64,000 nucleotides of DNA, from positions 86,099 to 150,098 of the forward strand of contig CAZFHY010000006.1 in NCBI GenBank assembly GCA_964519305.1. Reading direction: 5' to 3'. Both the position numbers and the translations under genes were made by a program. Below the pieces are notes generated by a model. That model was not told the origin of the DNA and made no database searches. It was given only the letters and a program-made list of their open reading frames with translations. Shown here piece after piece: positions 8,871-27,635 of the stretch. Source of the DNA: Candidatus Undinarchaeota archaeon. Its GTDB lineage: Archaea; SpSt-1190; JASMDC01. Every line of letters begins with the position of its first letter. Position 1 is the first letter of the stretch.

Positions 8871-9147
8871 TACCGGGACACAGAGAATTACTGAATTTTT
8901 GTTCAGTAACATGTGGATACCCTCTGTCGCCCTCATGGAAGCGAAAGGGCACAAGCTTCCCTTCAACAGTCAGCTAGCCAGAAGTCACCACATAGTACGA
9001 CCGTTCCAAAAAAGTACAGTAGACGCTGTATCTTCCTGCCATCACGCGAACATTGCGCGGACGTATCCCTGCCCAATCCTCCCACCTCGATATTGTAGGT
9101 GACGTGCCAGCAATGTCGCGTCTTGGGGGGCCCGGCCCGGTATCGAA

Positions 9148-9166
9148 AAGAATATATTATATTCAC
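9148..9166 (+). promoter_or_regulatory. TATA-box-like element (aatatattatatt) upstream of pilin-like gene
   Basis: AT-rich motif about 15-25 nt upstream of ATG 9179 in a 440-bp low-GC intergenic region; consistent with a leaderless transcript. Confidence 0.35.
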
Positions 9167-9178
9167 CCGTTAAGTCCC

Positions 9179-11304: not shown

Positions 11305-11384
11305 CGGACCGTTGTAAGTGGTGCCCCTGTCGCGTCCAGGGGGGCGGACCTACCTGACCGCTGGACGTGAGGTCATCCCGCGAC

Positions 11385-11470
11385 CGTTACACGCAAGTGT
11401 TTTAATCTGGAGTACCTAACCATCACTGTGAGGATGGGTGGACTCTTGTTGAAGTTGACACTGCACAAAA
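11385..11470. repeat. right copy of imperfect inverted repeat (inverted relative to 8768-8870)
   Basis: See left copy; lies between the end of the NHL segment and the 3' end of the convergent MBL-fold hydrolase gene. Confidence 0.6.
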
Positions 11471-11507
11471 GTTTCTGAGTACCCTTGCATCACTTCCTAC
11501 CAGAGTC

Positions 11508-12269
11508 CTAGAACTCAACCCTTTCTCCCGGTCGCAGGGTACGCACCTTGATGCCTGGCTCCCGTTCACGCGCCAACCTCTCCAGCTCCTCGGGGCGTCC
11601 CGAATGGAAGGATAAGGGCGGTAGGCTCATCCAGGCACCACCCTCGTGGATGGGGATGACTTTGCTAGCGCCAAGTTCCACTGCGGCCTGGAGGGCCTGG
11701 GCAGGGGTCATGACGATGCGGCGGCCAAGCACCCGGGAGCCGCCTATAGGGAGCATGGCCACGTCGATGGTGAAGCGCCGGCCAATATCGGTGAACCCGT
11801 GATGGTACTTCGTATCGCCGCCGAAGAACAGGCTCGTGGACCCGTCCTGGAGGACGAAGTTGATCTCGCCGTCCGGATGGTCCGCCTCGGTAGCGGTGAT
11901 GGTGACCCCTCCCTGCTCCTGGACGTCGCCCGGGACCATGTCCACGACCTCCTTCGCTCCCAGGTCGCGAGCGAAACGCGCCGTCCCCTCAGGCCCGAGG
12001 ATGGTTGTCTTGGCCAGGTCCATACGGCTTAAAGAGCGCCGGTCGAAGTGGTCCGGGTGGAGATGTGAGGCGACAATCAGGTCGATGGGTGGCAGGTCCT
12101 TGAGCTCGATACCGGGGCGCTGGTAGCAGGGCAGTCCCCGTAACTGCATGCAGAACCAGGGGTCGGTGAGGACCGTGAGCCCCTCGAACCGCAGCAGGAG
12201 CGTAGAGGTCCGGACGAATGTGACGTCCACCACGCTCCCGGGATAGGGGGCAAACGTTTTATGTCCCAT
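11508..12269 (-). CDS. MBL-fold metallo-hydrolase
   Basis: ORF track 258 aa; HxHxDH motif (SHLHPDH) and downstream His/Asp ligands; start taken at MGHKTF. Confidence 0.7.
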   Translation of the reverse strand: MGHKTFAPYPGSVVDVTFVRTSTLLLRFEGLTVLTDPWFCMQLRGLPCYQRPGIELKDLPPIDLIVASHLHPDHFDRRSLSRMDLAKTTILGPEGTARFARDLGAKEVVDMVPGDVQEQGGVTITATEADHPDGEINFVLQDGSTSLFFGGDTKYHHGFTDIGRRFTIDVAMLPIGGSRVLGRRIVMTPAQALQAAVELGASKVIPIHEGGAWMSLPPLSFHSGRPEELERLAREREPGIKVRTLRPGERVEF

Positions 12270-12777
12270 CCTCCGGCGGAGCACGCAGTGCTGCCCAGGG
12301 CCTTACGCCTCTTGAGACCATCACTGCGAATCCGCCCCATCCGACCGCTAGCAGCAGAAGCTGTGCGGCGATGAATACCTCCCGGGGGAACAGCCCCCAC
12401 GTCGACACCAGACACACGGTCTCGGAGAACGGGCGCAGGCACCGAGCATTACCTTCCCAGAGGATAGGGAGGCCTATGCCCAGATCGATAGCGGCGTGGA
12501 GCAGAACACCAGCTAGGCACACGGGCAGGACACGACGGAACCGTTGCGGGTCCCTGGCGAGCATCCACGCGACCACGGCCGCTAGCAATGGCAGAACGAT
12601 AAGGTTGCCCATCACGGTAGCATGGGTGCGTGCCAGCACGCTCCACCCGAACACCACCATCACCAGGTCTATGTCCGGTACCACGCTGGCCACGAGGAAC
12701 GCGCGGGTCCGCTCCCGGTCCAGTCCCTGTCTAGAGGCGATAAGGAGCGCGAGCATGTAATGTGTGAGCGGGTCCAT
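12259..12777 (-). CDS. membrane-bound metal-dependent hydrolase-like protein (YdjM-like)
   Basis: 172 aa, starts MDPLTHYMLALLIA, four hydrophobic helices with conserved His/Asp positions. Confidence 0.5.
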   Translation of the reverse strand: MDPLTHYMLALLIASRQGLDRERTRAFLVASVVPDIDLVMVVFGWSVLARTHATVMGNLIVLPLLAAVVAWMLARDPQRFRRVLPVCLAGVLLHAAIDLGIGLPILWEGNARCLRPFSETVCLVSTWGLFPREVFIAAQLLLLAVGWGGFAVMVSRGVRPWAALRAPPEDGT

Positions 12778-12781
12778 GGGT

Positions 12782-14197
12782 TCACCCGCGGCCTAGGAGC
12801 CGGCGGGCGGCCTTGGCACCTGCCCAAGCCATAGTGCGGACCTGAGCGTCACCCTTCAGAGCGGCGAGCGTCTGCCGTCCCACGTACCCGGGGCGCAGGT
12901 AGAAGGCCCGGTTGATGCGCTGCCAGTACTCCCGGAGAAGCTCGGGTGGTGCGGTGGGATTCTCCATCACGGTCTCGTTGAGGAACACGTACCGCTCCCA
13001 GTCGTCCGTCTGCAGGAGATCGTTCTTCTCGGCCCATGCGTGGAGCCCGGTGCCCGGGTACGGTGTGGCGAAGGACACCTGAAGGTAGTCGCAGTCGACC
13101 TCCTGGACGAGCTGGAGCGTCTCCTCCAGCGTCTCCTGGGTCTCCCCCGGCAGTCCCAGCATAAGGAATCCCATGGTCTTGATGCCCTCGTCGTGCGCCA
13201 ACGTGAAGGCGTTCTTGATCTGCTCCACGGTGATGCCCTTGCGCATGGCGTTGAGGAGTTTCTGGGAGCCGGACTCTATACCGAACTCGATGAGGTCGCA
13301 CCCCGCTTCGTGCATGGCCGCCAGCACGTCCTTGTCCACGGTGTCGGCCCGCGTGAGGGCCTTCCACCGCAGGTCGTCGGGCAGACCCCGTTCTACGAGC
13401 TCATGGCACAGCTCGATCGACCATGAACGGTCCACGGCGAACGTGTCGTCCAGGAAAGAGATGAGCTTGACGCCGAACTCGCGCCTGTCCCGCTCTATCT
13501 CCTCGGCGACGTTCCGCGGGGAACGTGTGCGCAGCGTCCCACCGAACACCCAGGGGCATGAGCAGTAGATGCACCGGCCCGGGCAGCCACGGACAGCAAT
13601 TACCGTGGAGAAATGATCAGATTCAGGCGCCCTGTACCGTTCCATGGGCAGGAGATGGAGGGCTGGGAATGGCAGGTCGTCCAGTGGGTCCACCAGCGGT
13701 CGTTGTGGCCCGTGCACTATCCTCTTGCCTTTACGGAGCGACACACCGGCCACCCGGGATAGCTTGCTAGGACCTTCCGGGAGCGAGTCCACCAGCTCGG
13801 GGAGGGTGCGCTCCCCCTCACCACGCACCAGCATATCGATAGATGGGAGCCGTGTGAGGGTCTGGTCCGGGACCATGCTGGCATGGACACCGCCCAGAAC
13901 TGTGGTCGTTTCAGGTCGCAGGGTCTTGACACCATGGGCGATGCGGCCGCACAGGTCCGCAGTGGGAGTTGTGGCGGTGAGCCCTACAACGTCGGGTTCG
14001 GCGTCCAGCACCCGACGGACCGCCTCTTCCTCGGAGAGCTGGAGCGCATTGGCGTCAAGTATGTCCACCGGTACGCCGGCCACTTCAAGGCACGCGGCGA
14101 GGTAGGCCAGCCCGAGCGGGGGGCCTACTGATATCTGGGCGATGGCCTCGGTCCGTGACTGGTACGGCGGGTTCACCAGCAGCACGGATGGTGCCAT
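12782..14197 (-). CDS. B12-binding domain radical SAM protein (class B)
   Basis: ORF track 12782-14251; N-terminal B12-binding-like region (VLLVNPPYQ...GLAYLAA), CxxxCxxC motif (CPGRCIYC); start proposed at internal Met (MAPSVLL) because the maximal start collides head-to-head with the divergent gene. Confidence 0.7.
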   Translation of the reverse strand: MAPSVLLVNPPYQSRTEAIAQISVGPPLGLAYLAACLEVAGVPVDILDANALQLSEEEAVRRVLDAEPDVVGLTATTPTADLCGRIAHGVKTLRPETTTVLGGVHASMVPDQTLTRLPSIDMLVRGEGERTLPELVDSLPEGPSKLSRVAGVSLRKGKRIVHGPQRPLVDPLDDLPFPALHLLPMERYRAPESDHFSTVIAVRGCPGRCIYCSCPWVFGGTLRTRSPRNVAEEIERDRREFGVKLISFLDDTFAVDRSWSIELCHELVERGLPDDLRWKALTRADTVDKDVLAAMHEAGCDLIEFGIESGSQKLLNAMRKGITVEQIKNAFTLAHDEGIKTMGFLMLGLPGETQETLEETLQLVQEVDCDYLQVSFATPYPGTGLHAWAEKNDLLQTDDWERYVFLNETVMENPTAPPELLREYWQRINRAFYLRPGYVGRQTLAALKGDAQVRTMAWAGAKAARRLLGRG

Positions 14198-14213
14198 GGT
14201 CGAAAAGGGGCCT

Positions 14214-14228
14214 GTTACCTTAATAAAC
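14214..14228. promoter_or_regulatory. shared divergent BRE/TATA-like element (ccttaataaacg)
   Basis: Located between rSAM start (about 14197, minus) and membrane gene start (14250, plus); the same cc-ttaataa motif recurs upstream of other genes in the window. Confidence 0.4.
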
Positions 14229-14249
14229 GTTACACGGGTTCGTTCCATC

Positions 14250-16004
14250 ATGCTCGGACAGGCAGGGGGGCTTGTGGCAGGTTTCCTGACCTGGACCTAT
14301 GCTCTTCTCGTACCGGGACTGCTGTGGGCGCTGGCCCTCTATCCTGGCCGGACGCTCATCTTCACGCTCGTGACAGGCCTGTCGATCGGTCTCTTCGTGA
14401 TGCCCGTGGGCGCTTTCATGTTCGCTTGGCTGACCGGCACGGTCGTCTCTGTACCGCTGGTGCTCTCTCTCGCTACCCTGCTCTCTCCGCTGGCCCTTGT
14501 CGTACGATGGCCTCGAGCACCTTCCCGGGGCGATTCCGGGGACGGTGGGGCCGCAGCACTGATCCTGGCGCTCCTTCTCCTAATGGGTGCGCTCTACGAG
14601 GGGACCGCTCTTGGTTACTGGGACACCTACATCGTGGCCCCCGCTCTGTTCATCATCGATGAGCCCATTGCCTTCGTGGACATGAACGGCAACCTCCTGG
14701 TGAACGCCACCCTCACCGGAAAGCTGTTCGACAATCTCAGGGACGATACGACCTATGGCATCATCACAAAGGACCAGCGCCTGGGTGCGGGTGTGCTGGT
14801 CTCGGTCCATGCCCTCCTCCTGGGCGATGTGGGGTTCAGACTGGCCTTCGCCTGCTACCACGCGCTTGGTGCGGCCGCGATCTACCTGGCGGCCCGACTG
14901 CTCTTCAGTTCGTCATGGATGGGCATTGCCGCCGCCACGCTCCTTGGGTTCAACGGGTTCGTGCTCACAGCAGATACCCTCAATCCCAACGCCATCGCCA
15001 TGTCCATGAGCGCTGTGATGACCATGTTGCTGCTCCACAGGCCGCGAGGGAGGCAGTGGGCGATCATCGGTCTGCTCCTGGGCACCCTTGGTGGGGTACG
15101 GAACATCGCACTGCTCTTCGTCCCTGCGGTCATCTGGGCGACCCGGCCCTGGGACCGGCGACGGCTGGTGCTGCTCCTGGCAACGGCCTTCATCCTCAAC
15201 GCACCTTTCCTCGCGTGGAACAGGTTCGCCTTCGGTAGTATGTTCACCCACGCCGCTATGTACGCCGGGTATGAGGGGTGGCGGCCCCAGTTCGAGCACC
15301 AGTTACCGGTCCTGGGCACGTCGTTCAAGTTCAACGGGATGCTCAACTGGCCGTTCTACGATAACATAGTCCGGACACCTCACTTCCCATTTCCTGTGTT
15401 CCTCCTCCTGCCGCTTACTGTCATACGTTCCTTCGGCCTCGTCCTCTCTGCACTGGGGCTCGCTGGCATCGCTTTCCTATGGCGGGACGACCGCGCCGCC
15501 ATTATCCTACTTCTGCTCTGGGCCCTTCCATATTTCATGTTCTTCCTACCGCAGGAGAACTGGTCCGAGCTGAAGATGACCTTCCTCCTCCCTATCTATC
15601 CGGCAATGGTGCTATTGGTCCTGGCCGGTCTGCGCGGATCACGCCCGCTGCACATCGCCGTGTCGCTCCTCCTGCTCATCGTGTTCGTACAAGTGGCCGC
15701 GACGAGCCAATACGAGCCCGATCCGCGGTGGCCCGAGCGCTTCCCACATTCCATGGCCAACGCGGGCAGGGAGCTGCCCGACGAACTGCGTGATACCCAG
15801 TTCTTCTTCCACCTGCCGGAGAACGATGACGAACTGATCCACCAGCGCCAGCGGTTCACGGCCGGGAACATCTTTCCATCGATCCGCACCGTTCCCCGTG
15901 AGCGTTTGAGCGGTCTGAGAGCGGCCCTCCGGACCGAGATGAGCGAGCGGAACAATGATGGTAGGCGGACCATGATCGCGGTATGGAACTACATCTACGG
16001 ATGA
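14250..16004 (+). CDS. polytopic membrane protein, putative GT-C-type glycosyltransferase-like
   Basis: ORF track 14142-16004; about 12 predicted TM helices, IIDEP loop motif, ~585 aa from MLGQAGG; assignment by architecture only. Confidence 0.45.
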   Translation: MLGQAGGLVAGFLTWTYALLVPGLLWALALYPGRTLIFTLVTGLSIGLFVMPVGAFMFAWLTGTVVSVPLVLSLATLLSPLALVVRWPRAPSRGDSGDGGAAALILALLLLMGALYEGTALGYWDTYIVAPALFIIDEPIAFVDMNGNLLVNATLTGKLFDNLRDDTTYGIITKDQRLGAGVLVSVHALLLGDVGFRLAFACYHALGAAAIYLAARLLFSSSWMGIAAATLLGFNGFVLTADTLNPNAIAMSMSAVMTMLLLHRPRGRQWAIIGLLLGTLGGVRNIALLFVPAVIWATRPWDRRRLVLLLATAFILNAPFLAWNRFAFGSMFTHAAMYAGYEGWRPQFEHQLPVLGTSFKFNGMLNWPFYDNIVRTPHFPFPVFLLLPLTVIRSFGLVLSALGLAGIAFLWRDDRAAIILLLLWALPYFMFFLPQENWSELKMTFLLPIYPAMVLLVLAGLRGSRPLHIAVSLLLLIVFVQVAATSQYEPDPRWPERFPHSMANAGRELPDELRDTQFFFHLPENDDELIHQRQRFTAGNIFPSIRTVPRERLSGLRAALRTEMSERNNDGRRTMIAVWNYIYG

Positions 16005-16008
16005 GGTC

Positions 16009-17292
16009 TTAGCTCAACCGAACAAGCTTCTCGCACGGGAACTGGAATCCCTCTGGCATTGGTCGTCCTGTCGGGGGCGCCAAGCAGTAGATGATCGTGT
16101 CGCAGTCCGTGAAGAGGACCGGGAAGCACACCCCCTCGTCCGGAAGCTCGCCCTCATCGGGCTGTGGCAGGTCGAGGCAGATGTTGGTCCCTTTCACCTT
16201 CGACGGCTTCAGAGGCTGGCCGTCGCAGTAGGGCATCTCGCCCTCGCAGTTGGAGTTCACCGTGTCGCCCGTGAACGTGAGAACACGGGCGTACTGTGTG
16301 ACCGGGATCATGCACGGTAGGTCCTCGTTCGCAGTGGTCGCACACCCGATCTGCTTCCACGCACCGTCCAGGGAACATCCCGAGGGATTTGGATCAGTGG
16401 TGGGTGCTGGGGTCCCGAGCGGCGGTACTTCCCCCCGCTCGAGCTTGAGGCACGGCGGTTCCCCCTCCTCGAGAGGCTCGTCGTCCACGGGACAGAAGAA
16501 GAGCGAGTCGCAGTCGATGAACGTGAAGGGGATGCAGGGCTCACCCTCCTCTCTCTCCATGCAGAGCTGGTTCCCGTCAACGATCTTGCCCGTGAACGCC
16601 TCGTCCTTGTTACAGAAGCTACCGCGGCATCCGAATGTCCCCGTGCCCCCGTCGGTGTAGGTGAGCATCACAGTGGCATAAGCGAGAGGTGCAGGGCTCG
16701 GCATTTCGCGGCCTTCCAGGTCGGTGTGCCCGGTCTGGACCCATGATCCTGTGAGGGAGCAGCCAGTTGTTCCGGTGGCCGGCGTCGCTGATGGAGACGT
16801 GACAGGTATCGGGCTGGCCGTGGCCGCGATCGGATTCGGTGTCGGGCTGGTTGTCGCATCTACCGTATTTTCGGTCATGGGCGACGGATCCTCGTCAACG
16901 GTCGGTTCCGGCTCGGTGCCGTTCATCAACGTCTCCCAGGGGACGGACGTGGGAACCGCTCCATCGCCCCCACTGGTCCCCGTGAGCCCGTCCAGGTAAC
17001 CGCCCTGGTACCCGATGAGCGCCACGCCCAGAACGAGCACCGCAACCATGCTCAGAAGGACAGGAAGACTGCTGGATGCGGCCTCTACGGCCACGACCTC
17101 CTCGACAGGGGCGGCCGTCGCCTCCACGTACGCGGCCTGGGCCTGGAGCGACTGGAATGCGGTGTCCACGGCGGCGGGGTCGTATCCGGACTGGATCATG
17201 TAGGAGCGTACCTGGTAGGGGGTGTAGCCCTGGTTGAGATACTCCTGGATATAGTTGGCGTAGTAGCTCGTGTAGTCCTGGTACGCCTCCAC
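16009..17292 (-). CDS. type-II membrane protein with conserved N-terminal cytoplasmic module and two extracellular Cys-rich repeats
   Basis: 427 aa; N-terminus YTSYYANYIQEYLNQGYTPYQVRSYMIQSGYDPAAV, single TM, Thr/Pro linker, two ~115-aa 8-Cys modules. Confidence 0.55.
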   Translation of the reverse strand: MEAYQDYTSYYANYIQEYLNQGYTPYQVRSYMIQSGYDPAAVDTAFQSLQAQAAYVEATAAPVEEVVAVEAASSSLPVLLSMVAVLVLGVALIGYQGGYLDGLTGTSGGDGAVPTSVPWETLMNGTEPEPTVDEDPSPMTENTVDATTSPTPNPIAATASPIPVTSPSATPATGTTGCSLTGSWVQTGHTDLEGREMPSPAPLAYATVMLTYTDGGTGTFGCRGSFCNKDEAFTGKIVDGNQLCMEREEGEPCIPFTFIDCDSLFFCPVDDEPLEEGEPPCLKLERGEVPPLGTPAPTTDPNPSGCSLDGAWKQIGCATTANEDLPCMIPVTQYARVLTFTGDTVNSNCEGEMPYCDGQPLKPSKVKGTNICLDLPQPDEGELPDEGVCFPVLFTDCDTIIYCLAPPTGRPMPEGFQFPCEKLVRLS

Positions 17293-17315
17293 GATATTCG
17301 TATGGCAGTTGGGTA

Positions 17316-18086
17316 TTAAGTGGATTTGCCTTCGCGGGCCAGCGCCTCGCAGGGCACTTCCACGCCCGCGGCCGGGGGGCGGTCCACTGGCGAGAGGCAG
17401 TACACCATCGTATCGCAGTCAACGAACTCCAGCGGGTAGCAGAGGCCCGTGGTGTCCATGCAGATGCGGCGACCATCCTCTGTCCTGGCGGACGTGCCCT
17501 CGCCCGGGGGACAGTACGGTTCTTTCCCCTCGCACTCGAGAACGGCGGTCCCGCCCTCATCGATTGTGACTATCCGCGCATAGTCCTCCAGTGCCACAGC
17601 GCATGGTCGCTCCTCACCGTCTGTGGAGGCGCACCCAATCTGACGCCAGCGCCCTTCGATCGGGCACTCGAGCTCCGGGTCCACGCTCCGTGGCGTTGGT
17701 GTGGGGCTGGCTGAGGCGGTGCGACGCTGTGCGGTTCTTGTACTCGTGACGGCCTGGAGCTGCGTGCGGACAATAGGTTCAGCCTGGATCCCGCTGGTAG
17801 AGGTGAGGTTGTGGAGGAGACCTTGCTGATATGCAACAACAAACCCTCCTATGAGCACCAACACGGCAAGGAGAGCGACCACAGTTCCCCGGGATTGTCC
17901 TTCATTGGTCGGTGTCGGCGGCTCCTCCCCTTTAACGAGGGCCTCCGCAGTGGCCTCGTCGTACCCCATCTCGATGAAGAGCTCCTTGACCTGCTCGGGT
18001 GGGTAGCCCATCTGCAGGTACTCCTGAGCATAGGATGCATAGTAGCTGGAGTACTGGGCATCCCCCATCGGGAGGATACTCATCAC
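17316..18086 (-). CDS. paralog of 16009-17292 (same N-terminal module, one Cys-rich module)
   Basis: 256 aa; N-terminus YSSYYASYAQEYLQMGYPPEQVKELFIEMGYDEATAEALV, TM, Cys-rich ectodomain. Confidence 0.55.
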   Translation of the reverse strand: MMSILPMGDAQYSSYYASYAQEYLQMGYPPEQVKELFIEMGYDEATAEALVKGEEPPTPTNEGQSRGTVVALLAVLVLIGGFVVAYQQGLLHNLTSTSGIQAEPIVRTQLQAVTSTRTAQRRTASASPTPTPRSVDPELECPIEGRWRQIGCASTDGEERPCAVALEDYARIVTIDEGGTAVLECEGKEPYCPPGEGTSARTEDGRRICMDTTGLCYPLEFVDCDTMVYCLSPVDRPPAAGVEVPCEALAREGKST

Positions 18087-18123
18087 TAGTGCTTTAATTG
18101 GTTTCTATGGGACCTCTGCAAGC

Positions 18124-18651
18124 TCAGAGCTTTTCGAAAGTGAGGTCCTTGGGTGGCATGCACATGGAGGCCACGGTGATGTGGAGTCGGTCCTCCTCGC
18201 CCTGGTAGATGGCAAGTGTCCGTGCGTCCATGGCGCGACCCTCGGATACCCGGTAGGCCTTGTTCCTGGAGAGGTAGTGGGAGCCGGTGAACGTCACGTC
18301 GAGCCACTTTTCCTCGCTCATGCCGTTGCCCCGTCCTTGTAGATGGAGCCCCTGCTCGTCCTCGTAGATGAGGAGCTTCGGGGCTTCGGGGAGGAGGGAG
18401 TCGGCCTGGATGAGATAGCCGTTGTCCAGCTCCATGTAAGAACCGTTCTCGAAAAGCGACTCTACGAGGTCGAGCTGGTTGTAGAGGGACTCGAGCGCGG
18501 CCCCGGGCACGGGTCTTAGTGAGCCCGCGAACCCGACGTTGTAGCCGGCGGCGGCGGGCGAGGCGAAGGGTTCGAAGACCTCTAGCCCCGATACGTCCAA
18601 TCCGGTCCCGGCCTCGGCCGCGTCCATATCGAGAAGATACATGATCATCAC
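18124..18651 (-). CDS. hypothetical protein
   Basis: 175 aa ORF with balanced composition; overlapping alternative frame 18086-18676 is Arg-rich and rejected; TATA-like tttaaaaa at about 18690 upstream. Confidence 0.4.
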   Translation of the reverse strand: MMIMYLLDMDAAEAGTGLDVSGLEVFEPFASPAAAGYNVGFAGSLRPVPGAALESLYNQLDLVESLFENGSYMELDNGYLIQADSLLPEAPKLLIYEDEQGLHLQGRGNGMSEEKWLDVTFTGSHYLSRNKAYRVSEGRAMDARTLAIYQGEEDRLHITVASMCMPPKDLTFEKL

Positions 18652-18689
18652 TTGTCCTTGCGGACGGAGGCGACAAGCAATGGTCCGTT

Positions 18690-18850
18690 TTTAAACATTT
18701 TCTTTGGATTTGACACGAAATCGCACGATTTGGGCTTATTCCCCGAAAAAACGGCTATTAAGCCTTAATAACATCTTTGAGCGTCTGTAGGGCGTCGAAG
18801 CGCACCGCATACTTTCATGCTATGTGAACTACCCCTCACCAATTAGAGGG
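18690..18850 (-). ncRNA. putative omega-RNA (reRNA) region at the right end of the tnpB element
   Basis: By analogy with IS200/IS605 TnpB systems the guide RNA overlaps the 3' end of tnpB and extends downstream; an oligo-T run (gccgttttttcgggg on the minus strand) lies near 18745; boundaries not determinable by eye. Confidence 0.25.
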
Positions 18851-20150
18851 GCTTCCCGCTTCGATACTGTTTCCAGCTCCACGGGCGCATCGGGTGGTCC
18901 CCACCCTGAGCGATTCTGAATGTTGATTGCTGCGTTCAGGTCGCGGTCAATGGTAAGGCCGCAGTTCCAGCAGCTATGTACTCGAACCGACAGGTCCTTC
19001 TTCACTAGCATACCACAACGGCTGCACATCTGAGAGGTGTTTTTCGGGTCAACCAGTACTACCTTCCCACCAGCCTCTTCCGCTTTGTAGGTGGTGTACT
19101 GGATGACCTTGTTCCAAGAAGCATCAACAATGGACTTTGCTAGATAGTGGTTTTTCATCATATTGAGGATATCGAGTTTCTCGAAGGTGATGGTCGAGTA
19201 GTTATCAGCAAGCTGACGGGAGAGCTTGTGGGCGAAGTCGGTGCGCTGGTTTCGGACCTTGCGGTGCACTTTGGCAAGCGCCTTCTTAGCCTTTTTCCTA
19301 CGGTTCGAGCCAATCTTTCTTCTTGAGATCCGACGCTGACGCGTCTTGATATTTTTCTCCGACTCTCGGAGGAAGCGTGGATTCTCGATGACGGCCCCAT
19401 CGGAGAGAGTGGCGAAATTCTCAAGGCCGACATCCACGCCGACGGCGATCCCGTCATGTGATCTAGCCTCGACTTTTACCTCACAGGAGAAGACGACGTA
19501 CCACTGATCAACATCGCGCTTGACGGTGCAGGTCTTTATCCTACCTTCGAGCGGTCGATGTAGCTTAATGCGAACGGGACCGATCTTCGAGAGTTTGAGA
19601 TGCTGTTCATCCGGAGAAAGTGAGAAGCCGCTCTGCGGATAGGTGAATGAGTCATATCTCCCCTTGCCCTTGAACCGGGGGTATCCGGGAGTTTCACCGT
19701 TCCTCACACGACGGAAGAACGCGTCGAACGCCTTCCTCAACCTCCGGAGGACATCCTGAAGTACTTGGGAGTGGACCTGTTGCTGATACTCATCCCTGTT
19801 TCCCGGGAGGGCGTCCTGTTGGTCCCTGTAGGTGACGCATCGTTGCTCATCCTTCCAGGCATCCGTGCGTTCTGCAAGTGCGTTGTTATAGAGCCTACGG
19901 CAGGTCTCGAGTGTGAATATTAGAATCGATTCCTGAGACTTGTTCGGATACAGACGATATCTGTAGCTACGTATCACTGTTTCCCCGTCCCCCACCAGAT
20001 ATCCTATTGGATGAAATAGTATTGCCGTGAATAAATAGGACTGGGAGGTGGCGTGCCAGTACTCGTTCAGGAAGTAACTTTCGAGTAAGTCACCTCCCTC
20101 TCGGAAGGCGACATCCCGCCGAAACGTAGAAAAGAGTTAGTCATCATACG
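18700..20150 (-). mobile_element. IS1341-like (tnpB-only) insertion element, approximate boundaries
   Basis: tnpB plus flanking lower-GC ends; imperfect hairpin gggaggtg...cacctccc at 20043-20097 near the putative left end. Confidence 0.45.
18829..19995 (-). CDS. tnpB: IS200/IS605-family transposase accessory protein TnpB (RuvC-like nuclease with zinc finger)
   Basis: 388 aa; canonical N-terminus RSYRYRLYPNKSQ, central RuvC-like region, C-terminal CxxC...CxxC zinc finger (CSRCG...CWNCG); no tnpA adjacent. Confidence 0.85.
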   Translation of the reverse strand: MGDGETVIRSYRYRLYPNKSQESILIFTLETCRRLYNNALAERTDAWKDEQRCVTYRDQQDALPGNRDEYQQQVHSQVLQDVLRRLRKAFDAFFRRVRNGETPGYPRFKGKGRYDSFTYPQSGFSLSPDEQHLKLSKIGPVRIKLHRPLEGRIKTCTVKRDVDQWYVVFSCEVKVEARSHDGIAVGVDVGLENFATLSDGAVIENPRFLRESEKNIKTRQRRISRRKIGSNRRKKAKKALAKVHRKVRNQRTDFAHKLSRQLADNYSTITFEKLDILNMMKNHYLAKSIVDASWNKVIQYTTYKAEEAGGKVVLVDPKNTSQMCSRCGMLVKKDLSVRVHSCWNCGLTIDRDLNAAINIQNRSGWGPPDAPVELETVSKREAPLIGEG

Positions 20151-20151
20151 A

Positions 20152-21471
20152 GTGGTCATGCGGGTGCTCCTCCTGGCCCCACGCGTGACGGAGGGCGAGT
20201 CCACTCTTCCTTTGGGGCTGGCTTATATCGCCTCCGTGCTCGAGGCCGATGGATGCGAGGTCCTTGGACGCGACCTATCCTTCACAGGACCTGAGGACGT
20301 TGCACAGGAGGCCGCCGACCTAGAGGTGGACGTGGTGCTCGCATCCTCGCTCACCAGCACCCTGGGCCAGGTGTCGGCAGCATGTGACAAGCTCCGACGC
20401 GCGACGGGGGTCCCTATCGCCCTGGGCGGCCCTCACGCCACAGCTCTACCGACCCACGCACTGGACGCCGGTGGCTTCGACGCTGTGCTGGTTGGCGAGG
20501 GTGAGGACCGGGTGCTCCCGCTCGTCAGGGCACTGTCCGGGAGCGGCCGGTTGACACGCGTCCCCGGACTCCGCCTCCCCGATGGTGCGTCAACGGGCCC
20601 GGCTCTGTCGCCTCCCGATCCGGATGCTCTTCCCTTTCCACGACGAGATGCCTTCCCCGAGAGCTTGTACTCGGGCATGCCATCCCGGGGTCCGTATACT
20701 CCGCTCATCACCTCTCGCGGGTGTGGTCGCCGGTGCGCTCACTGTCCTTCCCGTTCCCTCGTGGGGGGTCCGAGACGGCGTTCTCCGGACAACGTGGCCG
20801 ACGAGGTGGAACACATACTCTCGTGCGGGTACCGTGAGGTCCACGTGGAGGATGATGGTTTCACCGAGGACCGGGGCCATGTGCTTGGAATCTGTGATGC
20901 CTTCAAGGAGCGTGGACTGGACATCGACTGGGCGTGCACCAACGGGCTCCATCCGGACGACCTGGACGAGGGCCTTCTAGCTTCCATGGCCGGGGCCGGT
21001 TGTTACTCGATCGCCCTGGGTATCGAGTCCCTTGACCGATCTACCCTGGCCACTCTGTGCAGACCTATGGACCTGGAACGTATCGCAGGACTTGTCCGTG
21101 CGGCCCACGACCACGGTATTGAGGTCTGTGGTTACTTCATGCTCGGCATTCCGGGGATGGAGCTCAATGATGGGGCATCCCTGGCCGACGAGGCACTTGC
21201 CCTTGACCTCGACACCGCCCATTTCTCCGTGTTCTCACCCTTGCCCGGATCACCCATATTCTCCCGTTTGGCAGCTGATGGAGCATCGGTTGATGAGCTG
21301 GTGGCCGGTCGCGTCCCTGGGATGGACCGGGCCACTCTCGAAGTGGAAAGTACTCGGGCGTACCGCCGCTTCTACGCGGGGCACAAGGGAGTTGCCGTGG
21401 CACGCAAGGCCCTTTCCACTGGCAGACCGCTCGAGCCGATAGTCAAAAAGTTTAAAGACTGGTTCGTCTAA
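20152..21471 (+). CDS. B12-binding domain radical SAM protein (class B)
   Basis: 439 aa; N-terminal B12-binding-like region, CGRRCAHC radical SAM motif. Confidence 0.75.
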   Translation: MVMRVLLLAPRVTEGESTLPLGLAYIASVLEADGCEVLGRDLSFTGPEDVAQEAADLEVDVVLASSLTSTLGQVSAACDKLRRATGVPIALGGPHATALPTHALDAGGFDAVLVGEGEDRVLPLVRALSGSGRLTRVPGLRLPDGASTGPALSPPDPDALPFPRRDAFPESLYSGMPSRGPYTPLITSRGCGRRCAHCPSRSLVGGPRRRSPDNVADEVEHILSCGYREVHVEDDGFTEDRGHVLGICDAFKERGLDIDWACTNGLHPDDLDEGLLASMAGAGCYSIALGIESLDRSTLATLCRPMDLERIAGLVRAAHDHGIEVCGYFMLGIPGMELNDGASLADEALALDLDTAHFSVFSPLPGSPIFSRLAADGASVDELVAGRVPGMDRATLEVESTRAYRRFYAGHKGVAVARKALSTGRPLEPIVKKFKDWFV

Positions 21472-21481
21472 CGCCCACCTT

Positions 21482-22897
21482 ATGGGCAAGCGTGTGGTTT
21501 TCCTTCGGGCCGATCCGGAACGGCTCTCGCCGGGACACCACCCGCGCAACGCCTACCCCTGCATGAACATCCGTTACAGTGCCTCCGTGGCCATGGCCAT
21601 GGGGTACGATGTGGAGGTCATCGACATGGCAGCGAGCCTGCCGAGCGGCACACTGGCCGAATCGGTGGCCGCAGCACGACCTGACGCAGTAGTATGCGAT
21701 GTCATCACCCCTGCCGTCCAGTTCACTCTTGACGCCGTCGAGCGGATCGGGGTCCCGGTCCTCGCTATGGGACAGCATTCATCGGCGCTACCGCGGACAT
21801 TACTCGATAGAGAGGGGCCGGTGGACGGCTGTATCGTGGGCGAGGCCGAACAAACGCTCCAAGAGGCACTGCCCGCTATCATGGCAGGGGACCTGTCATC
21901 CCTTGCCGGAATGGCCGGGCTCGTTGTCCGGTCACCCGATGGGCCCATCGAAGGACCGCCCCGCGCTCCTCTCGAGCGGCTCGATGAGCTCCCCTATCAG
22001 GCCCATACCTCTCACCACGGGAGCTACTACACGCACTATCCTATTCGGACCCGGGGCCGCCGTCGGTTCGGTTTCATCGAGGCGGGCCGTGGCTGCCCGC
22101 ACTCGTGCTTATTCTGTTCACAGACACTGCGGATATCCTATGGCAACCGGGTCCGGCTACGATCGCACGAGAGCGTGGCCGCTGAGGTCGATTATCTCGT
22201 CCGTGAGCTCGATGTGAACGCGCTCGTGTTCCTGGACGACGCCTTCTGTCTCGATCACAAGTTCGCCCATGGCATCTGCGACTCCCTTATCGAACGGGGG
22301 CTCAACGACAAGGTGTCATGGCTGGTGCAGACCCGTGTAGACGCGGTCGACGAGGACCTACTGACCCACATGCGTGAGGCTGGCTGCTCCTCAGTCTGCT
22401 TCGGTGTCGAGTCAGGCAGCCAGCGTGTGCTAGATGTGTTGCGCAAGGGCGTCAAGCTCGACCAGATCCGGGCAGCGTTCCAGATGGCACATGATGCGGA
22501 CCTCCTCAGGGTCGGGTTCTTCATGCTCGGTAATCCGACAGAGACCCGGGAGGAGCTTGAGAGCACCAAGGCCTTCTGCCGTGAGCTTGCCCCGGACTTC
22601 ATTCAGGTCGCGTTCTTCACGGCGTACCCGGGCTCGGCCGCTTGGGCGGAATGGGGCGACACGACCGACTACGACTCCTACACCCACTATAACGCAGTGA
22701 TCAGCAACCGGAGCGAAATGAGCAATGAGGAACTGATCGAGCTCCATCGGGAGTTCTATCTCACCTTCCTTTCCCGTCCGGACTTCGTCGCACGCTATGC
22801 CCGCTACCGTCTTCCCAGGGCCCTTGCGAACTGGCGCGAGGAAGCGGAGCTGATGCGGACGGCGTTCGGGTTCTTCACGTCCCAGCACAGTGATTAG
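21482..22897 (+). CDS. B12-binding domain radical SAM protein (class B)
   Basis: 471 aa; CPHSCLFC radical SAM motif; follows previous rSAM gene by 10 nt. Confidence 0.75.
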   Translation: MGKRVVFLRADPERLSPGHHPRNAYPCMNIRYSASVAMAMGYDVEVIDMAASLPSGTLAESVAAARPDAVVCDVITPAVQFTLDAVERIGVPVLAMGQHSSALPRTLLDREGPVDGCIVGEAEQTLQEALPAIMAGDLSSLAGMAGLVVRSPDGPIEGPPRAPLERLDELPYQAHTSHHGSYYTHYPIRTRGRRRFGFIEAGRGCPHSCLFCSQTLRISYGNRVRLRSHESVAAEVDYLVRELDVNALVFLDDAFCLDHKFAHGICDSLIERGLNDKVSWLVQTRVDAVDEDLLTHMREAGCSSVCFGVESGSQRVLDVLRKGVKLDQIRAAFQMAHDADLLRVGFFMLGNPTETREELESTKAFCRELAPDFIQVAFFTAYPGSAAWAEWGDTTDYDSYTHYNAVISNRSEMSNEELIELHREFYLTFLSRPDFVARYARYRLPRALANWREEAELMRTAFGFFTSQHSD

Positions 22898-23601
22898 GCG
22901 CGTCCGGTGAGCCGGAGCACGCCTTCCCGGAGCAGGGGGCGGAGGATTGAGTACCAGTCGAGGAAGGGCCGCATCTTGCTATACCCCTTCTTCTCATCGA
23001 AGCGCTTGGTCACGGGGACCTCGGTGTAACGGTAGCGCTTGACCGCCTGGATGAGCATATAGGGCTCGAACTCGTACCGGTCGAGCCACGGGGCCGAGAG
23101 GTCGAGCTCCTTTACCAGCTTGATCTTATAGGCGCGAAAGCCGTTCGAGGCGTCCGTTACCTTCTTCCCGGTCACCAGCCGGAACGTGATCGTGAACAGG
23201 TGGGTGGTCACACGTCTGAAGAGCGGGATGTCCGGGTGTCCCTCGAGGTACCGGGAACCTTGGACCAGATCGTTCCCTTCGAAGAGCGGGTCCAGTAGGT
23301 TTGGTATCTCGGCCGGCTCGTCCTGGTCGTCCCCTGCTATCGCCACGATGATGTCGTACCCCTTCTCCATGGCATAGGCCTGGACGCGCCGGGTGAGGAA
23401 TCCCGGGCCACGGTTGACATCATTACGTAGTACGGTCGCACCGGCCTCTTTGGCCTCTTTCCCCGTGCGGTCGGTACTGCCGTCGTCAACGACCACGAAC
23501 TCGTCAACGATATCCCAAGGGACCTTGCGCACTGTGCGGCCGATCTTGCCTTCCTCGTTGAAGGCGCCGGTCATGAGCAGAACGCGCTTGCCCCGGTACA
23601 C
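22894..23601 (-). CDS. family 2 glycosyltransferase (dolichyl-phosphate sugar synthase-like)
   Basis: ORF track 22894-23736; GT2 signature ...AFNEEGKIG...VVVDDGSTD...; start uncertain (GTG 23601/23619 or ATG 23574) because the maximal extension overlaps the upstream gene. Confidence 0.65.
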   Translation of the reverse strand: MYRGKRVLLMTGAFNEEGKIGRTVRKVPWDIVDEFVVVDDGSTDRTGKEAKEAGATVLRNDVNRGPGFLTRRVQAYAMEKGYDIIVAIAGDDQDEPAEIPNLLDPLFEGNDLVQGSRYLEGHPDIPLFRRVTTHLFTITFRLVTGKKVTDASNGFRAYKIKLVKELDLSAPWLDRYEFEPYMLIQAVKRYRYTEVPVTKRFDEKKGYSKMRPFLDWYSILRPLLREGVLRLTGRA

Positions 23602-23632
23602 ATCAAGCGGACAGGCCACATGCTTTAAAAGT

Positions 23633-24649
23633 TCAGGGGAAGGGGACCGGTGCCCGGTCCTCGGCCGAGCGCAAGGCCGCTTCCGCCATGCGCACCGACT
23701 GGACGCCCACCTCACCCGAGGTCCGTGGCGTCTCACCGGTCCTGACGCAGTCCAGGAAGTGCTCTATCTCCAAGCGAAGGGGTTCGTGCTGATCGATAAA
23801 GGGCTGTGAGACGTTCCCCATCCGGCGCATGGCCCTGAACGCTCCGTAGGAATCGTAGCGGTAACCGTTGGACTCCAGGAATGCCAGATAGTCGAAGTCG
23901 AACACGTTGAGCTGCGGTGTGATGCTGTCGAGCTGCGCCGAGCGCGCCTCTCCCACAAGCCACATCTCACGCACTTTTCGTGGGGTGAGCCAGCTGACTG
24001 TGATGTTGGCCAGGATGTTATCGGGGAATCGGAGTGTGATGAACGCCACATCCTCGAACGGCGTCTGGGGCAGAACTGAGCTGGACGTTGCGGAGATCTC
24101 TATGGGGGTCGCGCCCAGTAATAGGCAGACCGTGTCGAAGTCGTGGACGGCGAAATCGAAGATGACACCACAATCCAGGCGAGGTGTGCGGAATCCGATA
24201 CGCGAGCAGTGGAGCATGTAGATCTTACCGAATGTATCGGAATCGATCTCTCGCTTGAGCGCCATCACTGATGGATCGAACCTGAAGATATGGCCCACTT
24301 GGAGGGTGAGCCCATCCTTCCTGGCTATCTTCATAAGGTCCTCGCACGCAGGGGAGTTCAGTGCGAAGGGCTTTTCCACAAGGAGATGCTTTCCTGCTTC
24401 CAGAACGGCGCGGGCCACGTCCGCGTGAGTGGCCGCAGGTGTGCAGACGCACACGGCATCTATGTCGCTCCTGGAGAGCAAAGAGTCCATGTCCTCGGTG
24501 GTATCGACCCCGAAGGAGCGTTCGATCATCCGACAACGGGACCCACTGATGTCACAGACCTGGACAAGGTCGGTATGGGGCAGCTCGGTGAGTACGCGAA
24601 CGTGGTTCTTGCCCCACTCGCCGACCCCTATGACCCCGACACCGACCAT
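23633..24649 (-). CDS. Gfo/Idh/MocA family NAD(P)-dependent oxidoreductase (sugar dehydrogenase-like)
   Basis: 338 aa; N-terminal Rossmann motif VGVIGVGEWG, EKP motif (HLLVEKPFAL). Confidence 0.75.
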   Translation of the reverse strand: MVGVGVIGVGEWGKNHVRVLTELPHTDLVQVCDISGSRCRMIERSFGVDTTEDMDSLLSRSDIDAVCVCTPAATHADVARAVLEAGKHLLVEKPFALNSPACEDLMKIARKDGLTLQVGHIFRFDPSVMALKREIDSDTFGKIYMLHCSRIGFRTPRLDCGVIFDFAVHDFDTVCLLLGATPIEISATSSSVLPQTPFEDVAFITLRFPDNILANITVSWLTPRKVREMWLVGEARSAQLDSITPQLNVFDFDYLAFLESNGYRYDSYGAFRAMRRMGNVSQPFIDQHEPLRLEIEHFLDCVRTGETPRTSGEVGVQSVRMAEAALRSAEDRAPVPFP

Positions 24650-26111: not shown

Positions 26112-27635
26112 ATGCCTGAGTCCCTGGCGCCATATGTAGCACAGCTGCTACGCCAGGGGTATACGAAAGACCAGGTGCATGACACCCTCAGGGAGCAGGG
26201 ATGGGAGGATAAGGCCATCAGCGAGGCTCTAGAGCAGGCGACAGTGCTCGCTGAACAACCCGAACCGCGGCTCGCCCCCTTTCCCAAACCCATGGTCCCG
26301 CCGGCGGTAGTGGCCGGGGTCTTGGGAATAATCGTAGTGATCGTGTTCGCGTCCATGTTCATGGGCGGCTCGGAGCCAACGCCGGTGGAGCCCACGCCCA
26401 CACCACGCGCTACACCTGAGCCCACCCCTGAGCCCACGGTCGCACCTACAGCCACGCCGAAACCGGAACCGAAGGGATTGGGCGTCGACCTGGTCGGAGT
26501 GACGGTGCGTTCCAAGGACGAGACCCAGTTCCTCCACCGCGACTTCACTGTTGACGCGATCAAGCTCGTGTACGATGTCCTATCTGCGCCGAGCGCGCAG
26601 GAGCGTTACGAGTCGATCCAGAAATTCGTGGGATATTGTAAGAACAGGACCTTCCCTAATCCCGAGCTCGACCGTGAGCTCGAGGAAATGGACAAGGACA
26701 TGGAGAACTACAAGTTCTACTTGGAGACCAACAACATACCCAAGGCCACAGAGGTCCTGGAAAACGATATTTTCGGACGATTCAGCGCGAAGCGTGTCGA
26801 GGGACCATTACCCGTCACCGTCTCGCTGAGCTACGGGACCGGTCTTGTCCTCAACCTGACCTCCACGACCCAGCTCATTGGTTTGAACACGCTCTGGGAG
26901 ACATCCCATCTCATCCAACCGAACATCCCTGATGACGTGTGGACCGGGGTGTGGGACGAGGCGTGGACGAACACGTTCCCCGCGGGTGCTGAGCGCTCAT
27001 CCTTCACCGTGGACATGCTCTATCTTGACCAGACCACGCTCGAAGTGACCCCGCCGCGGTCGGCGGCGTTCAAGTATTACGGGAAGAGCGGCCTGCGATC
27101 GCTACAGGGGGATGGCTACACGATTCCGAGCTTCGAGGCCGTGCTGATCTACCAGATCGGAGGCGAGGTGTGCACCCAGACCGAGCGGACATGGTCCGGC
27201 GGGAATGTCGGACAGTGGGTTTGCCCCGAAAGGGTGAAGGAGGGTGAGTTCTTCGTCAAGAAGAACGTGACCTTTTCGTTCCTGGACCTCTCGCCAGTGC
27301 AGGGGAACCTTACGGCCGTCTATCGTACCGAGCTCAAGGCGAGCATCAGTGGCAATCCCATCGACCTCACTTTCCTGTTCCTTGAAGGGAAGGAGCCATT
27401 CTCCAAATCATCGGCCTCCGCCCTCCTCAAGGACCTGAAGCTCAATATCTATACTGCAGAGACCGAAGGGACGGCAAAATGTCCCGTCCACGTCGTCGAC
27501 GCTTACACAAATGCACCGGTCAGCTATGTAGCGGCCGTTGCTGTGGGCGAGTACATGATGGTTATGTACGCCGACGACAAGCCCAATCCAGCCTACTTCC
27601 GCAGTCTGGCCGATGCACTGTGCACAAAGGTCTAG
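26112..27635 (+). CDS. type-II membrane protein of the same N-terminal-module family, large extracellular domain
   Basis: 507 aa; N-terminus APYVAQLLRQGYTKDQVHDTLREQGWEDKAISEAL, TM helix, Pro/Thr-rich linker. Confidence 0.5.
   Translation: MPESLAPYVAQLLRQGYTKDQVHDTLREQGWEDKAISEALEQATVLAEQPEPRLAPFPKPMVPPAVVAGVLGIIVVIVFASMFMGGSEPTPVEPTPTPRATPEPTPEPTVAPTATPKPEPKGLGVDLVGVTVRSKDETQFLHRDFTVDAIKLVYDVLSAPSAQERYESIQKFVGYCKNRTFPNPELDRELEEMDKDMENYKFYLETNNIPKATEVLENDIFGRFSAKRVEGPLPVTVSLSYGTGLVLNLTSTTQLIGLNTLWETSHLIQPNIPDDVWTGVWDEAWTNTFPAGAERSSFTVDMLYLDQTTLEVTPPRSAAFKYYGKSGLRSLQGDGYTIPSFEAVLIYQIGGEVCTQTERTWSGGNVGQWVCPERVKEGEFFVKKNVTFSFLDLSPVQGNLTAVYRTELKASISGNPIDLTFLFLEGKEPFSKSSASALLKDLKLNIYTAETEGTAKCPVHVVDAYTNAPVSYVAAVAVGEYMMVMYADDKPNPAYFRSLADALCTKV

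Follow-up and report, generated by a model that had tools for sequence, protein, structure and literature searches.

The window examined here, a stretch of 64,000 nucleotides from a Candidatus Undinarchaeota archaeon (contig CAZFHY010000006.1, positions 86,099 to 150,098), carries an island of genes organised around three class B radical SAM enzymes, termed rSAM1, rSAM2 and rSAM3, together with a GT-C-fold membrane glycosyltransferase, two GT2 glycosyltransferases (GT2a and GT2b), two flippase-like membrane proteins and a NodU-type O-carbamoyltransferase. The reading preferred here, with slightly better than even confidence, is that the island encodes a lipid-carrier pathway of surface glycosylation in which the sugar is tailored by radical chemistry: in its general scheme, a lipid-linked sugar would be C-methylated and O-carbamoylated, flipped across the membrane and transferred outside the cell. 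The exact chemistry is less certain than this general scheme. The evidence that carries it is the conservation of the gene neighbourhood, in that rSAM1 orthologues in both archaea and bacteria are found together with homologues of the carbamoyltransferase, the GT-C protein, a metallo-β-lactamase (MBL)-fold hydrolase and a GT2 enzyme. An earlier note, made by a model from the letters of this DNA, had proposed that the genes make a C-methylated and/or carbamoylated glycan or lipid head group; their functional linkage as a glycan/lipid-modification island is borne out by synteny across phyla, and the chemistry has a precedent in moenuronamide, whilst only rSAM1 proved to have a well-populated gene context. 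A literature search for a cluster of such composition found no description of one, and the class of substrate on which its class B radical SAM enzymes act is probably new.

Conserved gene neighbourhoods across phyla

Species-representative genomes were scanned with an rSAM1 profile, which gave 80 loci, and all window proteins were then run against these loci by tblastn, neighbours being defined as genes within 10 kb of the rSAM1 orthologue. The counts are those from tblastn, as open reading frame (ORF) calling in high-GC loci under-counts the MBL and flippase genes. Two clades can be distinguished by identity to rSAM1: the orthologues, at 43-50% (26-27 loci), and a sister clade, at 35-41% (57 loci). 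The orthologue loci come from Myxococcota, Omnitrophota, Planctomycetes, Gemmatimonadota, Woesearchaeota, unclassified archaea and other groups. The most constant partner of rSAM1 is the carbamoyltransferase, with homologues (29-52% identical) in 24 loci, alongside the GT-C protein (20 loci), GT2 enzymes (11-12 loci) and the MBL protein, homologues of which (40-47% identical) lie beside rSAM1 or the carbamoyltransferase in 11 loci. The 57 sister-clade loci contain no homologue of the carbamoyltransferase, the GT-C protein or GT2, and only a single weak MBL match; for the carbamoyltransferase, the comparison of 24/27 orthologue loci with 0/57 sister-clade loci gives a Fisher p = 4.6e-18. Other frequent partners in the orthologue loci are a PP-loop ATPase (15/26) and a SPASM radical SAM protein (16/26).

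Genes that are dispersed in the window form contiguous clusters in two of the orthologue loci (L007 and L009). On one side of these clusters are found homologues of the GT-C protein (25-29% identity), a GT1 gene, a homologue of the window's 275-residue protein (32-36%) directly beside one of its U32-family protein (29-32%), and the carbamoyltransferase (48-51%), with rSAM1, a DegT gene and a YdjC gene on the other. A Myxococcales locus (L091) contains three B12 radical SAM genes, an LPG_synthase_TM gene, a GT2, two carbamoyltransferases, an MBL gene and a GT-C homologue (41%). One-to-one orthology between rSAM1-3 and this trio was considered and rejected: only rSAM1 has an orthologue there, and the remaining two genes of the trio resemble rSAM1 more than they do rSAM2 or rSAM3. 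The contexts of rSAM3 homologues (L093-L095) hold a carbamoyltransferase, a U32 gene with a partner of about 260 residues, GT2, PMT_2, DegT, a Wzx-type flippase and further radical SAM genes, and U32 homologues thus occur in both rSAM1 and rSAM3 clusters (L007, L009, L093 and L095). The conserved context is well populated for rSAM1 and sparse for rSAM3, and for rSAM2 there is none beyond the sister genome described below.

The three class B radical SAM enzymes

In domain scans of the window ORFs, made with Pfam and NCBIfam at their curated cut-offs, the B12-binding (PF02310) and Radical_SAM (PF04055) domains were found above the Pfam cut-offs in rSAM1, rSAM2 and rSAM3, the B12 domain of rSAM3 being marginal (33.7 bits against a cut-off of 32.1). 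Each protein has a CxxxCxxC motif (CPGRCIYC, CGRRCAHC and CPHSCLFC), and C205, C209 and C212 are invariant in an alignment of 40 rSAM1 homologues. By domain content and motif, the three are assigned to the class B (cobalamin-type) radical SAM enzymes. AprD4, a protein of this kind, has a B12-binding domain yet makes no use of B12. The three genes are those listed in the earlier note, with the start of rSAM2 moved from 20152 to 20158 as in public gene calls; the GT-C-like protein, GT2, Gfo/Idh/MocA oxidoreductase, tandem flippase-like proteins and NodU-type enzyme that the note placed with them were also all found at or near the positions it gave, as judged by Pfam, TIGR00374 and a structural model.

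None of the three enzymes reached an NCBIfam cut-off, including those for BchE, HpnJ, BzaD, QCMT and HpnR, and membership of well-characterised cofactor-biosynthesis clades, which would have separated them from the neighbouring genes, was looked for and not found. The best NCBIfam matches of rSAM1 are BchE (TIGR02026, 235 bits against a cut-off of 481.35) and HpnJ (TIGR03471, 228 against 577.6); the HpnJ and BchE scores are 141 and 147 bits for rSAM3 and 92 and 50 bits for rSAM2, the best match of which is a ladderane-type lipid radical SAM family (95 bits against 360). In a sequence search of the PDB, the closest solved relatives were QCMT (9CCB) and AprD4, both at low similarity; the former is a C-methylase (PMC12931638). 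An identity as Tes/GDGT-MAS enzymes was rejected, as no solved tetraether synthase was among the PDB hits.

The three families differ in abundance. Homologues of rSAM1 number in the hundreds, whilst the rSAM3 family is rare, with best homologues at 33-40% identity; rSAM2 has a close relative only in the sister species (84% identity), the next being 37-41% identical among 1.84 billion representatives, although its superfamily gives 2075 representatives at E<1e-30. Among the best remote matches of rSAM2 are giant proteins of 1300-2600 residues that contain 2-5 B12 radical SAM-like stretches (P0348, P0349, P0366 and P0371). A neighbour-joining tree, which carries no bootstrap support, placed the rSAM1 orthologues in one clade, rSAM3 in a small clade of its own and rSAM2 on a long isolated branch.

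In the same tree the orthologue clade is sister to a group that is probably Gmm, the C-methylase of archaeal tetraether lipids, as judged by gene order and taxonomic spread. In archaea, the Gms-Gmm pair is responsible for the synthesis and methylation of glycerol monoalkyl glycerol tetraethers (GMGT), Gmm being a methylase of GMGT and glycerol dialkyl glycerol tetraethers (GDGT) that is 31% identical to MoeK5 (PMC11214058). An AhbD-like radical SAM/SPASM gene of about 490 residues lies immediately upstream in 15/57 sister-clade loci, and the loci with this Gms-like gene include those of Thermococci, Aciduliprofundum/DHVE2 and Thermoplasmata (examples of the sister clade are L033-L090, e.g. L039 7076-9970, L071, L074 and L082). 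Gmm and rSAM1 are alike in being class B radical SAM proteins of about 465 residues; the rSAM1 orthologues differ in forming their own clade, in occurring in many bacteria and in being tied to glycosylation genes, and no Gms-like gene was found in the window or in the rSAM1-orthologue loci. On these grounds of tree position and neighbourhood, rSAM1 is placed outside the Gmm clade. Its nearest characterised relatives, the probable Gmm clade and QCMT, are C-methylases.

The GT-C protein and other partner proteins

The membrane protein encoded divergently from rSAM1 has about 11 hydrophobic segments, and PMT_2 was found in 13/22 members of its family. Its AlphaFold model (predicted local distance difference test (pLDDT) score 84.6, predicted template modelling (pTM) score 0.90) was compared with the PDB using Foldseek: the best structural match was ArnT (4.6e-5), with AglB, STT3, ALG9, PimE and Emb also matched, and the top 16 matches were all GT-C enzymes, with a probability of 1.00 for the first 10. 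In the family alignment, Asp175 (KDQR) never varies; it falls in the first conserved outer loop, and the loop that follows the first conserved helix contains a GYWDTY motif. The model thus assigns the protein to the GT-C fold, in a distinct family. GT-C enzymes take polyprenyl-phosphate-linked donors, and the matched PDB entries include ArnT with undecaprenyl phosphate, ALG9 with dolichyl-phosphate mannose, and AglB.

Both GT2 enzymes score best against the AglJ, dolichyl-phosphate hexose transferase, PpgS and ArnC families (81-107 bits against cut-offs of 325-529). For GT2a, which has no transmembrane segments, the best NCBIfam matches were AglJ, dolichyl-phosphate hexose transferase and PpgS, all below cut-off, and GT2b reached 107 bits against AglJ, also below cut-off. 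Of the two, GT2b resembles the bacterial clusters' GT2 more closely, at 32-41% identity in 11 rSAM1 loci and usually above GT2a. The TIGR00374 flippase-like domain was recognised in both flippase-like proteins (129 and 130 bits against a cut-off of 43.2); the first has 8 hydrophobic segments and matches the GlcN-PG flippase and HpnL (35.8 bits) weakly. The resemblance of both PF03706 proteins to glycolipid flippases suggests that they are candidate flippases.

The carbamoyltransferase has the Carbam_trans_N plus Carbam_trans_C architecture and scores 99.7 against the NodU equivalog, for which the cut-off is 1000. The Gfo/Idh/MocA protein is closest to an archaeal UDP-GlcNAc 3-dehydrogenase (232 bits against 450), and the U32 protein matches UbiU (86 bits against 440) and TrhP (77 against 534), again below cut-off. 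The adjoining 275-residue protein was considered as a cryptic, UbiV-like U32 subunit, but comparison of its profile with that of U32 gave a probability of only 16%, and its single-sequence model has a pLDDT of 36.8, too low to be of use. Three surface proteins that belong to no known family share a short N-terminal cytoplasmic helical motif (e.g. 'YAQEYLQMGYPPEQV'), a single transmembrane helix and a linker rich in Pro and Thr. In the longer of the two upstream copies (16009-17292), which has no Pfam match, the linker is also rich in Ser and is followed by Cys-rich domains; the shorter one (17316-18086) is its neighbour and likewise Cys-rich, and the third lies at 26112-27635. These proteins may be targets of glycosylation.

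A proposed pathway for a tailored lipid-linked sugar

In the proposed pathway, GT2a and/or GT2b would place a sugar from a nucleotide sugar onto dolichyl or polyprenyl phosphate at the cytoplasmic face of the membrane. Either the nucleotide sugar or the lipid-linked sugar would then be tailored: the Gfo/Idh/MocA enzyme would oxidise it, the class B radical SAM enzymes would modify unactivated carbons, C-methylation being the likeliest reaction (the most confident assignment is that of rSAM1, with rSAM2 and rSAM3 in further steps), and the NodU-type enzyme would O-carbamoylate it. The U32 pair may add a hydroxyl group without the use of O2, and trimming would fall to the MBL and YdjM hydrolases. 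The two MprF-type flippase-like proteins would bring the lipid-linked product to the outer face, where the GT-C protein would pass it on to an acceptor outside the cell, for which the Pro/Thr-rich surface proteins of the island are candidates. Analogy with the roles of the families is the basis for the proposed order of events, for the lipid carrier and the acceptor, and for methylation as the reaction of the radical SAM enzymes.

A pathway of this layout resembles the ArnC/ArnD/ArnEF/ArnT, GtrA/GtrB/GtrC, CsbB/GtcA/YfhO and PpgS/GT-C systems, in which a GT2, a flippase candidate and a GT-C protein are combined and tailoring takes place between loading and transfer. It differs from the Arn type in its tailoring enzymes, which comprise up to three class B radical SAM proteins, a carbamoyltransferase, an MBL protein and the U32 pair and not a deformylase, and in a GT-C family that is distinct; from both Arn and Gtr it differs in that the flippase candidate is of the MprF type (PF03706) and not GtrA or EmrE-like.

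For the tailoring itself, a class B radical SAM enzyme working alongside a NodU-type enzyme has a precedent in moenomycin biosynthesis: moenuronamide is a 3-O-carbamoyl-4-C-methyl-glucuronamide (PMC13584161), and the methylase of that pathway, MoeK5, is a radical SAM enzyme of class B (PMC9204698); C-methylation and O-carbamoylation are therefore favoured. In moenomycin unit F the two enzymes act on a phosphate-lipid-linked sugar, as is proposed for the window, a likeness in which MoeK5 was compared via the literature (PMC9204698, PMC11214058). The PP-loop ATPase of the related loci could amidate a carboxylate. In the tailoring of unit F, MoeM5 is reportedly the carbamoyltransferase and MoeF5 the amidotransferase. 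The window differs from the moenomycin pathway in having neither a MoeO5-type prenyltransferase nor a PP-loop gene and in that the host is an archaeon, and the presence of a GT-C protein and flippase candidates in the island points to a cell-surface pathway and not to an antibiotic one.

Several observations weigh against the proposed pathway. No curated cut-off is reached by rSAM1-3, either GT2, the oxidoreductase, the carbamoyltransferase or the U32 protein, so that their substrates are assigned by analogy; since the best NCBIfam matches of rSAM1 are the non-methylases BchE and HpnJ, methylation is not the sole option. The GT-C protein has no Pfam match of its own, and the Foldseek TM-scores of its model are modest (0.39-0.44, or 0.3-0.44 over the top 16 matches). 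The PP-loop ATPase and SPASM radical SAM protein that are frequent elsewhere are absent from the window; flippase-like genes, whose divergence defeats BLAST, could be picked out at only a handful of further loci; and the context of rSAM2 is conserved in the sister species alone. In the window strain, moreover, expression of rSAM2 and rSAM3 may have been altered by a TnpB insertion (described below).

A more specific form of the proposal can be put forward only tentatively, and we regard it as rather doubtful in full. In this form, the rSAM1 orthologues would constitute a family of cobalamin radical SAM enzymes that is new, spans both domains and acts on polyprenyl-phosphate sugars; with the carbamoyltransferase, MBL protein, MprF-type flippase and new GT-C family, they would make a C-methylated and carbamoylated surface sugar resembling moenuronamide, a primary-metabolism counterpart of moenomycin unit F; the pathway would be enriched in small-genome or host-/prey-associated lineages (DPANN-type archaea, Omnitrophota and Myxococcota/Bradymonadales), with rSAM2 and rSAM3 adding radical steps unique to the archaeal lineage.

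Alternative explanations

The presence of the non-methylases HpnJ and BchE in the sequence neighbourhood of rSAM1 makes an HpnJ-like ring contraction the main chemical rival to methylation. Here the GT2 would supply a lipid-linked (amino)sugar whose ring rSAM1 would contract in the manner of HpnJ or calditol synthase, the role of HpnL would fall to the flippase-like proteins, and the product would be a membrane-lipid head group of the cyclitol or carbasugar type in place of a transferred glycan. Ring contraction has been proposed for HpnJ and for Cds (PMC13459092), the latter being likened to rSAM1 here from its description. HpnJ is the second-best NCBIfam match of rSAM1, and sequence-similarity networks group it with Fom3 and MoeK5 (PMC9204698). 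The hopanoid set of HpnI (a GT2), HpnK (a YdjC-type deacetylase), HpnJ and HpnL also resembles the combination of GT2, rSAM1 and a flippase-like protein of the LPG_synthase_TM type, the last having a weak HpnL match, with a YdjC gene following the rSAM1 orthologue in L007 and L009. Against this, the HpnJ score is far under its cut-off, YdjC occurs in only 2/26 loci and not in the window, there are no hopanoid genes, and the constant partners, the carbamoyltransferase and the GT-C protein, are foreign to the hopanoid pathway and unused in the calditol pathway; moreover, the sister clade of rSAM1 is a probable methylase, Gmm. Ring contraction is accordingly judged improbable, if less so than the readings that follow.

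That the radical SAM enzymes instead act on isoprenoid chains, methylating or cross-linking those of the membrane lipids or the dolichol carrier as Gmm, Grs and Tes do, with the glycosylation genes as mere neighbours, is considered unlikely. It has in its favour the 35-41% identity of rSAM1 to the clade that shows the Gms-Gmm arrangement in 15/57 loci (PMC11214058) and the ladderane-cluster lipid family as best NCBIfam match of rSAM2. The rSAM1 orthologues are, however, separate from the Gmm-like clade in the unbootstrapped tree, and their neighbourhood of carbamoyltransferase, GT-C and GT2 genes is consistent even in bacteria that do not have isoprenoid ether lipids; the window contains no Gms, Tes or Grs-type gene and no rSAM/SPASM gene, and the PDB search gave no match to Tes/GDGT-MAS.

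A similarly low probability is given to a specialised metabolite, namely a diffusible or membrane-anchored compound, moenomycin-like phosphoglycolipid or aminoglycoside-like, directed against hosts or prey, in place of a structural surface glycan. Class B radical SAM enzymes, NodU/TobZ-type carbamoyltransferases, Gfo/Idh/MocA oxidoreductases and DegT proteins (the last in L007, L009 and L095) are typical of moenomycin and aminoglycoside pathways (PMC9204698, PMC13584161), the carriers include Omnitrophota, Myxococcota/Bradymonadales and DPANN-type archaea, and the island varies between close relatives; yet the GT-C and flippase-like core members point to an acceptor at the cell surface, and the window yielded neither a prenyl-phosphoglycerate synthase (MoeO5/GGGPS-like) nor a cyclitol synthase, and no genes for export or resistance.

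Finally, a chance neighbourhood of abundant class B radical SAM genes and unrelated glycosylation genes, for which the huge size of the superfamily, the isolation of rSAM2 and the rearrangement of the island by insertions might speak, is very improbable, because the co-location recurs across phyla and is specific to the rSAM1 orthologue clade, recurs independently around rSAM3 homologues and is accompanied by operon-like spacing, and because synteny derived from one recently transferred element is unlikely at protein identities of 30-50% across phyla.

Gene map and extent of the island

The host is archaeal, as an archaeal LonB is encoded in the window, and proteins near-identical to those of the window are found in marine metagenomes and in metagenome-assembled genomes labelled ‘Candidatus Undinarchaeales archaeon’ or ‘Methanopyri archaeon’ (NCBI labels that may be unreliable). 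The earlier note had bounded the island at 12782-24649; the functional unit is larger, extending upstream to give a span of about 4837-24649, and probably also takes in the U32 pair and GT2b downstream (Table 1). Spacing is operon-like, with a gap of 4 bp between rSAM1 and YdjM, an overlap of 26 bp between YdjM and the MBL gene, and separations of 10 bp from rSAM2 to rSAM3 and 13 bp from Gfo/Idh/MocA to GT2a.

Table 1. Features of the island and adjoining genes, with positions in the window.
Feature	Position	Strand	Evidence
NodU/CmcH-type O-carbamoyltransferase	4837-6534	-	PF02543 104.7 bits and PF16861 186 bits
Flippase-like membrane protein 1, MprF-type transmembrane domain	6613-7647	+	PF03706 at 2e-46; TIGR00374 129 bits
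Flippase-like membrane protein 2, tandem paralogue	7682-8734	+	PF03706 at 9.5e-42; TIGR00374 130 bits
Strain-specific block: pilin-like surface protein (9053-10933), then end of NHL-repeat ORF	8731-11523	+	Absent from L096
MBL-fold metal hydrolase, last gene of rSAM1-YdjM-MBL operon	11508-12284	-	PF12706/PF13483
YdjM-family membrane protein, putative membrane-bound metal hydrolase	12259-12777	-	PF04307
rSAM1, class B radical SAM, anchor of conserved module	12782-14197	-	PF02310 and PF04055
GT-C-fold membrane glycosyltransferase, divergent from rSAM1	14196-16004 (alternative start 14250)	+	Model; PMT_2 in homologues
Surface protein, candidate glycan acceptor	16009-17292	-	Sequence features; conserved in L096
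Shorter paralogue of the preceding surface protein	17316-18086	-	Shared N-terminal motif and Cys-rich domain; conserved in L096
Conserved ORF, about 174 residues	18124-18651	-	Called as gene in L001-L005 and L096; no family match
IS200/605-type TnpB element (ORF 18829-19995)	about 18828-20135	-	PF01385, PF07282, PF12323
rSAM2, divergent class B radical SAM, first gene of rSAM2-rSAM3 operon	20158-21471	+	PF02310 and PF04055
rSAM3, class B radical SAM	21482-22897	+	PF04055 and PF02310
GT2a, small soluble GT2, probably of polyprenyl-phosphate sugar transferase type	22894-23619	-	PF00535
Gfo/Idh/MocA sugar oxidoreductase, operon with GT2a	23633-24649	-	PF01408, PF02894, PF22725
Nuc/DrmC-like phospholipase D (PLD) protein, 227 residues	25058-25741
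Third surface protein	26112-27635	+	Shared N-terminal motif; only weak family matches
275-residue U32 partner, without family assignment	27632-28459	-	Adjoins U32 in L007 and L009
U32-family protein, family of UbiU/TrhP-type O2-independent hydroxylases	28432-29529	-	PF01136
SNF2 helicase	29601-31415
GT2b, second small GT2	32559-33230	+	PF00535

Two candidate features were set aside. A tRNA-Tyr called by ARAGORN at 18510-18591 (+, 82 nt) has no Rfam match even at E<=1 and lies inside the conserved 174-residue ORF, and is probably a false positive. The PLD protein was considered as a lipid head-group enzyme; it is Nuc/DrmC-like instead and was excluded from the module. Together with the DrmD/BrxH-like SNF2 helicase, from which it is separated by the U32 genes, it may be a remnant of a defence system. 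Further downstream, a 745-residue protein (35462-37699, minus strand) contains a ubiquitin-conjugating (E2) domain of eukaryote type (UQ_con, 79 bits) along with a weak match to RWD, and its gene adjoins two large ORFs (37356-40235 and 40223-42283) that have no family matches.

The sister genome and plasticity of the island

A sister genome (L096) is 82-88% identical to the window at the nucleotide level and 95% identical in the rSAM1 protein. Its gene order is carbamoyltransferase; flippases 1 and 2; MBL-YdjM-rSAM1; GT-C; surface proteins; a 170-residue ORF; and rSAM2-rSAM3, and this compact contiguous order is the ancestral arrangement. The TnpB element is missing from L096, where the empty site aligns cleanly and 185 bp separate the divergent genes on the rSAM2 side. 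The description of the cluster as interrupted by tnpB therefore stands as regards a strain-specific insertion; the element is, however, intergenic and breaks no coding sequence. GC content drops to 0.547 across the TnpB stretch. Its end lies about 22 bp before the start codon of rSAM2, and the element therefore displaces the promoter that drove rSAM2-rSAM3 in the sister genome.

The block at 8731-11523 is likewise absent from L096, in which the MBL gene is followed by the flippase gene after 109 bp, and it lies outside the conserved module. Its pilin-like surface protein combines a class III signal-peptide-like N-terminus with a linker of Gly, Ser and Thr and repeats of 'YEIMYATWNGAAWS', and is followed by an NHL-repeat ORF in another frame (9053-11304 for the two together). 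Given its absence from L096, the block was either inserted or arose through a frameshifted fusion. L096 in turn has TnpB copies of its own, as well as an additional trio of radical SAM genes (3.7 kb). The latter region (3310-6871 of L096) comprises a 477-residue B12-type radical SAM protein, two radical SAM proteins of about 300 residues and a 75-residue ORF, between two surface-protein genes, and may be a peptide-modifying or additional tailoring cassette. The surface-glycan island is thus a plastic one.

Implications

Pathways for antibiotics, cofactors and lipid tails are the main setting in which class B radical SAM enzymes are known. If the proposed pathway is correct, radical C-H chemistry would extend to the cell-surface glycans of archaea and bacteria, and a defined gene set (rSAM1, carbamoyltransferase, MBL, GT2, flippase and GT-C) would be available for heterologous reconstitution. 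A sugar-directed clade would also be split from the probable Gmm, which matters for the use of gene markers for methylated tetraether lipids in environmental data, and the sister clade is useful as a boundary when Gmm is to be annotated apart from the sugar-linked clade. The pathway would, in addition, represent a new surface decoration in uncultured marine archaea, Omnitrophota and Myxococcota, in which surface chemistry probably governs cell-cell contact.

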